From a bacterium (GTDB lineage Bacteria; SAR324; NAC60-12), in assembly GCA_965205865.1 (NCBI GenBank), contig CBDBHR010000027.1, forward strand, positions 96,001-160,000: DNA of 64,000 nt, read 5' to 3'. Position numbers: made by a program. Below, piece by piece: positions 15,001-18,000 of this stretch. Each line of letters begins with the position of its first letter. Within the stretch, counting starts at the first letter, position 1.

Positions 15001-18000
15001 ATCTCTGGCTTTGACATCGACAATCGTCAGCTTGTCGGAATAAAACTCGCGTTCATTGTAGGGGTTTAGGATTTCAACTTCAGAAATAGGAGATTGTGGG
15101 GCAAGGACGCCGTTGAGGAAATCAATCAGTAAATTTTTATTTTCCTTTGCCCCCAAAATGGCTTTGAAGACACAATCGACCGTCGGAGAAATGAGATGTA
15201 GCACAATGATACTCCTCAAAAAAGGGAACAAGAAACCTTTGTTTTCAATAAGTATATCAAAGCGTTTGGACAACAGCGAGACTTATTTGTTTTCTCTTTG
15301 TATCAAGGTCATTTTCCCGATTTCTCCTGATGGCTTCATGTTCAAATTTGGCAATTGTCAATCTTCGTCGAATGGTTCTCCTTTCAAAATGGTCATGGGA
15401 GGAAGGCGCCTCACGGAGGATTTGACCTCCTCCCTCGGGTGCTCCAGGAAAACAAAGAGGGTTGCCCTGGTGGAAAGGGTTTCCTCATCGGCTGCTTTTT
15501 CTTCCTGAGTAAGGCGCTGAGCTCAATTGGGTGAGGGGAGGCCTTTTTGGAGAGAATGGTTGATATCGAGAAAATTTGTCTATACTGTCGAGTTTTTCTG
15601 CGGTGCCAATCGCAAAGTGCAGGCTTGTGAGGGGGAAGGAAAACAGGTCGCGGCCTTCATCAGGGCATCATGTTTATCAGAGGGCCAACGATCAAAAAAG
15701 GCCTTGAGCCCCTTCTGAGGCCTCAAAGAGGATTAAAGAATTTCTGCTGGTCTTTCGTTTTCTTTTGTGATAGTTTTCAAGAAATAGTCTTTTGCTGAAG
15801 GTTTTATTTCAATTTCGCTAATATTAATTTAGCCGAGAGTCGTGTAAAACATCATTTCATCACCAGAGGATTTTTAGAAACTGTCGACTAGGAATTGAAA
15901 AGTGCCGGATATGTCTTAAAAAAAAATATTGATTTCCTGTTCTGGATATGAAAGAATTTGCCTTAAATAATCGCTGTCGCGAAATGGTTTTTAGCCGTCT
16001 GCTGTCAGCTATCAGTTTTTGAATCATATTGATATACCGTTTTTTTTGTAAGTGAAAACGGTTAGCTGAGAACAGATAGCCTTAAATGCTTGACAACCAT
16101 TTGCAGAGCGATTATACAATATTTTATTCCAGGGACAGAAAAGCAATAATGAGATCCTTCGCTTTGCTCAGGATGACATGAAAGTCTGGAATTAACCCGT
16201 TACAAGAATAAAAAAATTGACAATAAGGTGGATATGAGAGTAAGCTTAAACACCCAGTTCCCAGTTCCCAGTTCCCAGTTCCCAGTTCCCAGTTCCCAGT
16301 TCCCAGTTCCCAGTTCCCAGTTCCCAGTTCCCAGTTCCCAGTTCCCAGTTCCCAGTTCCCAGTAATAAGTTCCAAGCAACAAGTCACAAGTCCCCAATCC
16401 CAAGTTCTACCCCCTTATATTATCTCGACATCAGGGAGAGATCCTTAAGATCCCTCCTTCCCCGTTCCAGAAATGGAAGGGCAATGGGGAATTTGGAAAA
16501 TCATCGGCGCCTGAGTGCGTCGGTTTATGGTTCATTGCCCAATCCTGGAGCCAATGAATCGGTTTTTTGATCACTCCAAAATGAAGGAGACCCAATGTGT
16601 AGAGGAATCCTCGACAACCTGCTTTCGGGGACGAAAGTAGTTTAAAGCAACTCGCAATCTTGTTTTTAATCAAAAAGCAGAAAGGAAAAAGATGGATAAT
16701 CAAAAAAGCAAATCAACCTTCGGTGCAACCCTGATGTCCCTCACCCTTTTGGTGGGGTTGAGCCTGGCAGGCGCCTGGTCTGCTGCGAAAATCCGATTCG
16801 CCCGATGGCGGGGGAATCGTTCTCAAAACCCTCAATTTAGAGAGGATCCCATGTTTTTTATTATGATGAAGAAATTTGTCGCCCCTCTCGTGGGGCTGAC
16901 CCCGGCAGGCTTCTGGTCTGCTGCAAAAATGCAATCCTTGTTGCTCACCCTCATTGTGAGCATCTTGGCCTTCGGGGGAAGTCTGACCGCTGCCCTTGCG
17001 GCAGAGATGGTCTGGGACCGCACCATCCGCAAGATGGTGGAAAAACCTCGCTATGGCGGAACCTTGACCTACGCCAACAATAATGAGGCGCCAAATACTG
17101 ACCCCTCGGTTGGGGGGCACGAAGCGGGATTTGCCGTTTCGGGGGTGCTGGAGAAACTCAGCATCGCGGACTGGGCCATCGACCGGAAGGTGAATGACCT
17201 GGTAAACGAGTTCCTGGCAGATGATCATTATGCACCAGCGCTGGCTGAAGGTTGGGAACAACCCGACCCCACTACGTATATCTTCCACATCCGCAAGGGG
17301 GTGCGTTGGCACAAGAAAGCCCCTTTGAATGGCCGAGAATTTACGGCACAAGATGTCGAATATAACTTTCACCGTACAACGGGTACGGGCAGCGGCTTTA
17401 GCGAACCTCCCGGCGTTAGCCAAGGACTCCCGCAGCTGGAATACGAATCGATCCGGGCGACCGACAAATATACCGTGGTTGTTAAGTTGAAGAAACCCCG
17501 CCTCGATGCGCTTACGATTCTCATCGAAGACACCTTTACCTTTATGGCCCCTCCCGAACTCATCAAGCGGGACGGGGATACGACGGATTGGCGGAAGCTG
17601 GTGGGCACCGGACCGCTGATGCTGACCGATTGGGTCGAAGGAAGCTCGATCACCTGGCAGAAAAATCCCGACTACTGGGGGGTCGACGAGAAGTTCCCAC
17701 AGAACCGCTTGCCCTATATTGATACCTTGAGGAGCCTGATCATACCGGATGAATCAGCCCGCGTCGCGGCCATGCGCTCGGGGAAGGTGGATTATATCGG
17801 TCACCAATCCAGATCGGCCCTCAAAGTCCCTGACATCGTGGAGAGCCTCCGGCGGACCAATCCCGACCTCCAAGTGCATGCGTATTATTTTCGCTCGAAT
17901 AACGGGATGGCCTATGATGTGACCAAGCCGCCCTTTAACGACATCCGGGTGCGCAAAGCCCTGCAACTGGCCCTGGATCTCGAAACCATCCACAAGGCCT

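Follow-up and report, generated by a model that had tools for sequence, protein, structure and literature searches.

Contingency loci driven by repeats are known mainly from pathogens, in which they concern surface antigens, restriction systems and adhesins. Among tandem heptanucleotide repeats, the STRR sequences of cyanobacteria (units CCCCAGT, TTGGTCA, and CAACAGT) are scattered in intergenic regions, and the TTTTGAT heptads of Vibrio cholerae ctxAB, which form the ToxR site, are located upstream of the −35 element and bound by a sequence-specific protein, their number differing between strains and affecting expression. The transcription termination factor Rho needs roughly 60–80 nt of RNA, and the rut sites at which it loads are, to our knowledge, neither perfect tandem repeats nor known as length-variable. 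In Haemophilus influenzae, the (ATCTTTC)n repeat of hmw1A is transcribed within the 5′ UTR, and a larger number of units results in lower expression; the hmw repeat units and a G-rich arm are described as a 5′ UTR hairpin, and its processing by RNase III as a step that determines expression and in turn influences the dynamics of the repeat (PMC12721329). This heptamer repeat is the closest known case to the element described below. Literature searches on repeat tracts that precede binding-protein genes, or that occur in symbionts of sponges, retrieved no paper.

The window analyzed here, a stretch of 64,000 nucleotides, belongs to genome G000 (4.74 Mb, 30 contigs) and harbors at 16253–16363, on the plus strand, a perfect CCCAGTT array of 15.9 units (Tandem Repeats Finder, period 7, 100% matches; C fraction 0.43, G fraction 0.14). 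The array begins 6 nt 3′ of a TTGACA-N18-TAAGCT box and lies ∼440 nt 5′ of the ATG at 16692, and the core statement of the initial annotation, i.e., a perfect heptamer tract after a promoter-like box and before a binding-protein gene, thus holds. Similar to hmw1A and hmw2A, a perfect, pyrimidine-rich, G-poor 7-nt repeat is placed between promoter and start codon in a long 5′ UTR (here a predicted one), the number of units is variable, and a downstream G-rich segment able to pair with the units is present in CCCAGTT-type leaders. However, the hmw repeats occupy two loci and serve adhesins of a pathogen, whereas the present repeat is found at at least 24 loci per genome before nutrient-uptake operons of an uncultured bacterium in sponge-labelled libraries. 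Also unlike hmw, the unit sequence and even the period vary by locus and lineage, the tract begins at the predicted transcript start, and the hairpin partner is missing in CACCCGG-type leaders and in those of a distant genome, G031. The resemblance to STRR is limited to tandem heptamers scattered in intergenic regions of one genome, as the tracts here keep one fixed position and strand relative to promoter and gene family. Identity with STRR or HIP1 elements was rejected, the HIP1 octamer being found 48 times in G000 against ∼72 expected and the STRR units named above being at or near chance. With ctxAB and other promoter-region simple sequence repeats (SSRs), the locus shares tandem heptamers near a promoter, but its tract lies downstream of the −10 and not upstream of the −35, and the difference in units between loci argues against one sequence-specific binder. 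What the tract shares with rut sites in 5′ leaders is a length of some tens of nucleotides, rich in C and poor in G, near the beginning of a long untranslated leader, in a genome that contains rho; it differs from known rut sites in being a perfect tandem repeat of variable length, and Rho-dependent termination is here a candidate only.

The tract is embedded in a cassette, all parts of which were placed on the plus strand. The −35-like hexamer TTGACA (16217–16222) and the −10-like hexamer TAAGCT (16241–16246) are separated by an 18-nt spacer, and the transcript start of this copy is predicted at about 16252–16254. The perfect units are followed by degenerate heptads (16364–16409; AGTAATA, AGTTCCA, AGCAACA, AGTCACA, AGTCCCC, AATCCCA, and AGTTCTA), whose start is overlapped by a Tandem Repeats Finder row of period 14 (16354–16384). 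The heptad region is closed by a conserved landmark, CCCCCTTATATTATCTCGAC (16410–16429), found after the heptads in both leader types; an alternative promoter within it (TATATT) was dropped, as conservation of this hexamer does not extend from one leader type to the other. Minimum-free-energy folds predicted a hairpin GGGAGAGAUCC-UUAAG-AUCCCUCC (16434–16457), and beyond it a G-rich arm (UGGAAGGGCAAUGGGGAAUUUGGAA, 16474–16498) is complementary to about three tract units. Further hairpins are AUCGGCGC-CUGAGU-GCGUCGGU (16503–16524) and the terminator-like GGUUCAUUG...CAAUGAAUC, then GGUUUUUUGA (16529–16570; −13.3 kcal/mol in the window copy), each with canonical pairs in 24–25 of 25 copies. The pairs of the leader hairpins are nearly invariant in 25 copies and two-sided changes are confined to two pairs, in the terminator-like hairpin, so that covariation speaks neither for nor against structure. 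The 30 terminator-like hairpins reported earlier were largely recovered, a strict pattern of hairpin then T run giving 26 copies in G000. A GNRA-loop hairpin module, GCUUUCG-GGGA-CGAAAGU (16621–16638; 22 strict copies in G000), and the SD-like GAAAGGAA with the start codon ATG 16692 (16680–16694; supported by the ORF call and by the start of paralog homology) complete the leader. In other leader copies, the GNRA-loop module shows a tandem duplication. On the 5′ side, an AT-rich repeated module (15725–15885) co-travels with the leader, since 32 of its 49 blastn copies in G000 are followed, on the same strand and within 900 nt, by the leader box.

The gene headed by this leader (16692–18398, plus strand) encodes a binding protein of the SBP_bac_5 family (Pfam, E 3e-69). 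At the N-terminus of the protein, a conserved peptide module occurs twice in frame ahead of the hydrophobic signal segment, and 22 of 29 matches to this module are in frame with an ORF of 450 aa or more; the N-terminal homology with a paralog on contig C29 starts with this ORF. Merged tblastn matches of at least 1200 nt defined 125 binding-protein loci in G000, and the box was located within 1300 nt upstream of 39 of them, in line with the leader reported earlier at 37 of 97 genes. A permease gene within 2.5 kb downstream of 33 of the 39 box-bearing genes indicates that the box heads operons. A tract of at least 4 units is present at 24 of the 39; the other 15, together with 18 of the 30 loci examined in G031, are without one, and hence a long tract is not needed for the gene to exist. 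At E up to 1e-60, the binding-protein subfamily was not found in the 29 other genomes related at family and order level. Among metagenomic relatives of the binding protein, a tract was found at only 3 of the 40 loci having at least 400 nt upstream, all 3 from one assembly resembling G031.

The count of perfect heptamer tracts with 4 or more units in G000 given by the initial annotation was reproduced exactly (31 tracts, 4.4–20.9 units). The longest array it listed, of 38 units, proved to be two adjacent tracts of 18 and 20.9 units at C25:148639–148910 and not a single one. At the same threshold, no perfect tract of period 5, 6, 8, 9, 10, or 11 was found in the whole genome, and periods 4 and 12 yielded four tracts each. 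All 31 heptamer tracts are downstream of a box GGT-N2–4-WATG-N0–2-AGTA with the sense strand C-rich, and 22 are made of CCCAGTT-type units. In 24 cases the tract starts 4–12 nt past the box end, and the 7 remaining ones, 16–162 nt past it, represent second or interrupted tracts. The strand bias does not represent 31 independent events, because the copies in one genome are paralogs of shared origin and the independent lineages are two only. When 61 boxes were compared (47 from G000 and 14 from the sister genome, G001), the −35 was TTGACA in 36 and TTGATA in 18, the −10 fitted TAnnnT in 60, and the spacer measured 17–18 nt in 59. This consensus suggests a sigma-70-type promoter, TTGACA-N17/18-TAnnnT. 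The earlier remark that a simple sigma-70 scan does not call the box applies to the window copy, the −10 of which (TAAGCT) matches at 3 of 6 positions.

Paralog pairs with flanks at least 90% identical differ in the number of units in seven of seven cases. Likewise, reciprocal-best orthologs of G000 and G001 differ in unit, in unit number, or in whole leader type, at 93–99% identity of the coding sequence versus 76–86% of the leader. In one ortholog pair (L077 / C23:130792), the same leader carries 0 vs. 9.9 units. In another (L071 / C30:1250910), the identity is 80–96% upstream, 44–74% from the box through the heptads, and 92–100% from the hairpin onward. The leader 3′ of the terminator-like hairpin is conserved between orthologs as well as the coding sequence, and one paralog, 90% identical, is entirely without leader. 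Judged from such comparisons, repeat units are gained and lost much faster than the flanks mutate, and recombination among paralogs moves either the module of promoter and tract or the complete leader from one copy to another. The view of the tracts as fast-evolving microsatellites was therefore retained, although the argument offered for it, namely that the sister species lacks expanded tracts, was wrong. G001 contains at least 14 of them genome-wide, (CACCCGG)4 at 11 loci and (CCAGCTC)4 at 3 loci, and perfect tracts of 6.7–16.6 units occupy 10 of its 17 leader loci examined. What G001 lacks is the CCCAGTT unit alone, (CCCAGTT)3 giving no match genome-wide, and the dominant unit differs between the species (CCCAGTT-type in G000, CACCCGG in G001). 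Gene conversion or a mobile cassette had been named as a possible refutation; exchange is demonstrable, with a box-heptad segment replaced between flanks 92–100% identical and with the leaderless 90% paralog, but it coexists with microsatellite behaviour. Leaders are also more alike than coding sequences among paralogs, as had been claimed, but with other figures: 82% vs. 75% identity and the leader higher in 917 of 1041 pairs, in place of 78% vs. 60% and 96% of pairs.

The same layout is present in G031, which is distant by its Rho protein (65% identical, as against 82–84% within the order) and in which the same binding-protein family is expanded. Of 30 G031 binding-protein loci examined, 12 carry a perfect tract rich in C and poor in G, with a period of 8 (mostly), 7, 10, or 4, a C fraction of 0.43–0.64, and a G fraction of at most 0.15. 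These tracts lie 357–664 nt 5′ of the aligned protein, none of the 12 being located in the coding sequence or downstream across the 30 loci, and sigma-70-like boxes stand 5′ of the tracts in loci L013 and L015. The G031 leader showed no similarity to the G000 leader (nhmmer, E up to 10). With the same layout kept at periods of 8, 7, 10, and 4, the heptamer period is, on sequence grounds, not the essential feature.

The RNA level was evaluated by folding and by public RNA libraries. No Rfam family was assigned, in agreement with the initial annotation, the sole match being Antizyme_FSE (15.9 bits, E = 6, gathering score 40). In predicted ensembles, the tract is only slightly less paired than the remaining leader, with a mean unpaired probability of 0.56 vs. 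0.45, and the value is higher in the tract in 27 of 34 leaders. CACCCGG units are partly self-complementary. In the window copy, the duplex energies of tract with G-rich arm (−23.0 kcal/mol), G-rich arm with the left arm of the terminator-like hairpin (−17.1), and the hairpin itself (−13.3) looked hierarchical. An attenuator switch of tract, G-rich arm, hairpin left arm, and right arm was unsupported, however, as minimum-free-energy folds of 20 leaders retained the hairpin with the heptad region blocked (19/20) or free (18/20). RNA-library contigs of two studies span 16346–16634, and the earlier report of RNA contigs over a leader was thereby confirmed; these contigs are short, and RNA ends are not readable from them. 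The sequence compared with the public runs was the part beside the tract, together with 5 units. Among the contigs obtained, CTTAAACA stands directly 5′ of 16330 in X1, which could be a copy with at most 5 units, its locus not being assignable. Depth differences between leader and coding sequence are unusable because depth is summed over paralogs, and stretches of coding sequence without RNA cover carry no evidential weight.

On balance, and with only a slight leaning, the region is interpreted as a promoter and 5′ leader cassette that is shared by paralogs and heads ABC-transporter operons with SBP_bac_5 as first gene, in which each operon is tuned by a hypermutable 5′ UTR SSR and paralogs exchange their promoter/tract modules. 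Because a sigma-70-type promoter would fire straight into the repeat, the repeat would be the 5′ end of a ∼440-nt structured untranslated leader, and the transcript would begin in a perfect C-rich, G-poor SSR. The number of units may then determine the amount of transcript reaching the coding region; if so, each of ∼25–40 operons would have its own heritable, quickly mutable expression level, and the outcome would be a contingency-like rheostat. The tract is probably a mutable expression dial. Three attributes of an SSR contingency locus were found here, i.e., a slippable perfect tract, a predicted promoter/5′ UTR placement, and a unit number differing between close relatives. As a composition with a clear excess of C over G in the RNA strand is conserved across loci, species, and the distant lineage, whereas unit and period are not, a reader that senses composition is favoured. 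Rho could be such a reader: the rho gene is present (707 bits, cut-off 509), all 34 tracts evaluated in G000 and G001 contain more C than G, as expected of rut sites, and 20 of the 31 tracts in G000 reach a length of 60 nt or more, the remaining 11 being shorter. A tract length of 28–146 nt spans the Rho requirement, and the tract could act as a rut-like site, with Rho termination at or before the U-run hairpin ∼170 nt past the tract. That the read-out is Rho loading, with the tract as a rut-like site, is favoured over an hmw-like hairpin, which fits in part, but is inferred very tentatively and is on the whole unlikely. Similarly doubtful is the wider proposition that ∼25–40 transporter operons each carry a length-mutable C-rich repeat at the mRNA 5′ end, onto which Rho or another composition-sensing RNA reader would load to a tunable extent, so that the expression level of each operon would be heritable and yet quickly reset. 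Two distant lineages would have evolved or retained this design, with leaders that are unrelated and periods of 7 vs. 8, 10, and 4, its modules being shuffled by recombination.

The repeats could also be a neutral mutational hotspot, i.e., a functionless by-product of slippage, linked to replication or transcription, in an ancestral heptad-periodic segment, spread and homogenised by gene conversion of the promoter cassette among paralogs. Degenerate heptads after every tract, which keep a slippage-prone seed always at hand, the demonstrable cassette exchange, and the many family members without a tract accord with this explanation, as does the bimodal distribution of tract lengths, short tracts not exceeding 3.9 units and long ones mostly having 6.7 or more, which a slippage threshold predicts. 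It is nevertheless judged unlikely, since the tracts of G031 occupy the corresponding position although its leader is not homologous, and share the C-rich, G-poor composition of the sense strand at other periods, and since the ∼20 distinct units observed are all G-poor although G031 loci have 60% G+C; further, setting aside the four tracts each of periods 4 and 12, no comparable tract occurs elsewhere in the 4.7 Mb of G000. A hairpin of the hmw type, in which the left arm is made of the units and the right arm of a G-rich segment, and RNase III processing determines expression and in turn influences the dynamics of the repeat, would fit CCCAGTT-type leaders only and is considered distinctly improbable. 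In most of these leaders the best tract partner is consistently the G-rich segment CGGGAACGGAACGGCAAUGGGGAAUUUGGAA, ∼100–147 nt after the tract (−21 to −28 kcal/mol); in the fold of the window copy, the arm pairs with the last tract units, an rnc gene is present, and the mechanism itself is described for hmw (PMC12721329). Yet the complementarity of the tract surpasses that of shuffled sequences, with z below −2, in no more than 10 of the 34 leaders of G000 and G001 and for 1 of 12 G031 tracts with respect to downstream pairing, CACCCGG-type leaders showed no consistent pairing partner for the tract, and the whole-leader fold, with z = −2.53 against shuffles when the tract is left out, is no better than shuffles when it is included (z = −0.24).

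Two further explanations, one at the level of DNA and the other of a separate RNA, were given still less weight. Template GGG runs (AACTGGG, CCGGGTG) forming G-quadruplexes, or C-strand i-motifs, just past the start site might impede or modulate RNA polymerase to a degree set by unit number, and the commonest units (CCCAGTT, CACCCGG, CCCAATT, and CCCAAGT) do produce a G3-N4 pattern on the template strand; the existence of long perfect tracts whose units contain no G or C run (CTCAATT × 14.1, CAGTTCA × 12.6, and CCAAAAT × 16.1 in G000, and CTCA × 6 in G031) makes this very improbable. The least probable explanation is a separate small RNA of ∼320 nt, composed of promoter, tract, and U-run hairpin, that acts in trans through a C-rich, UCCC-like array, the binding-protein gene being transcribed independently. 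The terminator-like hairpin with its T run in 26 copies and the RNA-library contigs over 16346–16634 are compatible with such an RNA, but these contigs cannot reveal RNA ends, a promoter scan of the window copy called no second promoter between the hairpin and the ORF, and past the hairpin the leader equals the coding sequence in its conservation between orthologs.

In the interpretation preferred here, that of a tunable, paralog-shared promoter and leader cassette, an element that is contingency-type by its position is placed on dozens of paralogous uptake operons in uncultured bacteria of sponge-labelled libraries. This suggests that a population could keep re-sampling which of ∼100 binding proteins are strongly expressed. 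If true, contingency-locus logic would extend from the surface antigens of pathogens to the nutrient-uptake repertoire of host-associated uncultured bacteria. The comparison of two lineages isolates the conserved property, namely a perfect repeat of C-rich, G-poor composition near the start of the predicted transcript, and yields a testable hypothesis of how 5′ UTR repeats are read, a question still open even for hmw. Exchange of promoter/leader modules among paralogs is also documented as a route of regulatory evolution.

Regarding the margins of the cassette, its upstream part includes a short widespread repeat piece (gatccttcgctttgctcaggatgaca..., 16151–16183, plus strand), corresponding to positions 11–43 of the query 16141–16700, which has matches in other genera, often at contig ends, with 16 matches in G016 alone. 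A search for terminal inverted repeats at the cassette ends, as a MITE-like mobile cassette would have, performed on the window copy only, identified one 14-nt pair, 86% complementary, at 15524–15537 and 16738–16751. The left arm of this pair lies 200 nt outside the multi-copy region, and the right arm ends at the 3′ boundary obtained from paralog comparison.

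Upstream of the window binding-protein gene lies a sigma-70-like box consisting of a -35-like TTGACA (16217-16222) and a -10-like TAAGCT (16241-16246) separated by an 18-nt spacer. Repeat detection and sequence reading placed a perfect (CCCAGTT)x15.9 array at 16253-16363, beginning 6 nt 3' of TAAGCT. The tract is directly followed by ∼45 nt of degenerate heptads and the conserved landmark CCCCCTTATATTATCTCGAC. Several hairpins were predicted between this landmark and a G-rich segment (16474-16498), and folding further predicted a hairpin followed by GGTTTTTTGA (16529-16570) and a GNRA-loop hairpin (16621-16638). 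The ATG at 16692, preceded by an SD-like GAAAGGAA, starts an ORF of 568 aa that encodes an SBP_bac_5 domain. The leader matched no Rfam family. TAAGCT agrees at just three of six positions, which is why a simple promoter scan did not call the box; the promoter, the transcript start and termination are all predicted. The window also contains tandem repeats at 40160-40345 (92-nt unit x2.1), 46644-46720 (38-nt unit x2.0, perfect) and 11198-11272 (36-nt unit x2.1).

The 22-aa module MMKKFVAPLVGLTPAGFWSAAK, assigned to the leader in the initial annotation, had 29 genomic matches, of which 22 shared the reading frame of an ORF of 450 aa or more. A 90% identical paralog on contig C29 showed homology from window position 16753 on, including the N-terminal region, while its upstream sequence was wholly different. 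Hence, the coding region starts at ∼16692, the leader comprises ∼440 nt of untranslated sequence, and the cassette ends at ∼16752. The leaderless paralog (C29:55100-55560) is equipped with a TTGACA-N17-TAGTAT box of its own and, upstream of the ORF, with a ∼46-nt direct repeat. The binding-protein precursors share an N-terminal peptide module (16752-16928; consensus ∼KKLVAxLVGLNPAGxWSAAK) preceding a hydrophobic signal segment, and the window gene harbors two in-frame copies of it.

The multi-copy region extends upstream to ∼15725. The AT-rich module at 15725-15885 is present in 49 copies in G000, the genome of the uncultured bacterium to which the window belongs, and 32 of them are followed by a leader box at a distance of up to 900 nt; the conserved cassette therefore reaches ∼500 nt upstream of the promoter. 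A 33-nt piece (16151-16183; gatccttcgctttgctcaggatgaca...) also matches other genera, frequently at the ends of contigs; the genome G016 has 16 such matches, and the piece seems to belong to a repeat that is widespread and high in copy number. In a 14-nt inverted repeat (15524-15537/16738-16751, 86% complementary), the right arm ends precisely where the cassette does on its 3' side, which may be chance. The window gene is an orphan without adjoining permease genes, placed between an Rpn/PD-(D/E)XK transposase-like gene upstream (14344-15273, minus strand) and an IS630-family transposase gene (18395-19498, minus strand), which directly adjoins the binding-protein ORF at its 3' end, the two stop regions overlapping.

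The core observation of the initial annotation proved to be real and stronger than stated. Perfect heptamer tracts with four or more units number 31 in the whole G000 genome (4.74 Mb), against zero for periods 5, 6, and 8-11. All 31 lie downstream of the same box with the C-rich strand as the sense strand, the copies within a genome not being independent, and in 24 cases the distance from the box end to the tract start is 4-12 nt. Among 61 boxes of G000 and its sister genome, G001, the -35 element was TTGACA in 36 and TTGATA in 18, the -10 element was TAnnnT in 60, and the spacer was 17-18 nt in 59. A box was located within 1300 nt upstream in 39/125 binding-protein loci of G000, and 24 of these 39 carried a tract of at least four units. 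As a permease gene occurred within 2.5 kb downstream in 33 of the 39, the cassette heads transporter operons. The claim that the sister species lacks expanded tracts was wrong: 10 of 17 G001 leader loci examined contained 6.7-16.6 perfect units. Genome-wide pattern search of G001 detected (CACCCGG)4 at 11 loci and (CCAGCTC)4 at three but no (CCCAGTT)3, and hence the dominant unit is species-specific.

Unit number was unequal in all seven paralog pairs with flanks at least 90% identical (6.9/4.4, 0/4.9, 9.9/7.7, 7.3/0, 3.1/8.7, 13.7/3.4, and 10.7/12.4). Leaders also differed in four reciprocal-best ortholog pairs with 93-99% identical CDS, which in G001 versus G000 showed (CACCCGG)13.7 vs. (CCAGTTC)3.1, (CACCCGG)10.7 vs. 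(CCAGTTC)9.7, (CCAGCTC)7.3 vs. (CCCAGTT)7.6, and no tract vs. (CCCAGTT)9.9. Sliding identity and alignments of ortholog pairs revealed three modes of change: pure tract expansion with the rest of the leader conserved (L077/C23:130792), a swap of the -35-through-heptads segment for the other box/tract type between flanks 80-96% and 92-100% identical (L071/C30:1250910), and replacement of the whole leader (L076/C10:2870). Each of the two genomes contains both box types, so the switches are explained by recombination between leaders of paralogs. Consistent with this, leaders exceeded CDS in identity among paralogs (82% vs. 75%; higher in 917/1041 pairs), whereas among orthologs leader identity (76-86%) was below that of the CDS. 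G000 also carries tandem copies of a ∼7-kb segment that includes a binding-protein operon (C26:151704, 158671, and 165700); the leaders at C26:157598 and 164627 differ (7.9 vs. 3.9 units), and the 3' half of the box is internally duplicated in one copy.

The closest named relative of the window binding protein (66-67% identical) was found in G031 (7.0 Mb), whose record is labelled 'Spirochaetia bacterium'. This genome is only distantly related to G000: its Rho is 65% identical, compared with 97% within the genus, 92% within the family, and 82-84% within the order. The expanded binding-protein family has 131 matches in G031 and about 125 loci in G000, and the best 30 of the 131 (L092-L121) interleave with G000 copies in the tree. 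Searches of 29 other, closer relatives up to E = 1e-60 yielded no member of the subfamily; together, these observations suggest large-scale transfer or a gene pool common to unrelated bacteria. Among the best 30 G031 loci, 12 had a perfect tandem tract located 357-664 nt upstream of the aligned protein, and none of the 30 had one in the CDS or downstream. The periods were 8 (six loci), 7 (three), 10 (two), and 4 (one), and all tracts were C-rich (C 0.43-0.64, G ≤0.15) within loci of 60% G+C. Sigma-70-like boxes precede the tracts in L013 (TTGACA-N18-TAGGGT) and L015 (TTGCCA-N17-TATGCT). The G031 paralogs have a common ∼600-nt leader, with no similarity detected to the G000 leader. Of 80 metagenome loci, 40 had at least 400 nt upstream, and the three with a tract belonged to one assembly with G031 units. 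In both lineages, a perfect repeat rich in C and poor in G is conserved in the early part of the leader; its sequence and period are not.

Position after a predicted consensus promoter, strand bias, tract purity, fast length and unit change, and module exchange are observed properties of the element. It fits best among the 5' UTR repeat contingency loci, as a new and massively parallel form that goes together with promoter-module exchange among paralogs. Leader sequence is present in RNA libraries. Unit number is inferred to tune expression. The closest documented case is the 5' UTR heptamer of Haemophilus influenzae hmw1A/hmw2A, where, according to PMC12721329, the transcribed (ATCTTTC)n repeat base-pairs with a G-rich arm and undergoes RNase III cleavage, expression falling as n rises. 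By analogy, the tract could pair with a G-rich arm and be read out via RNase III, and CCCAGTT-type leaders likewise have a predicted G-rich partner. However, the pairing excess over shuffles was modest (10/34 leaders of G000 and G001), absent in CACCCGG-type leaders, and seen in 1/12 G031 tracts.

Another candidate is a composition-sensing reader, with the tract as a Rho-loading rheostat whose length would set expression. This Rho-loading read-out is favoured, if at a low probability, because the composition is shared, C exceeds G in 34/34 tracts of G000 and G001, tract lengths straddle the Rho footprint, and a rho gene is present in G000. Unpairedness of the tract in predicted ensembles was only slightly raised. 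A terminator/antiterminator switch was not supported by constrained folding, and template-strand G-quadruplexes were ruled out as a general read-out since long tracts exist with units without C runs. In the window copy, the U-run region after the hairpin (16555-16571) is complementary to 16699-16715 (17 nt, 82%) and also to 16670-16681, sites just 3' of the start codon and just 5' of the SD; such predicted pairing might occlude translation initiation.
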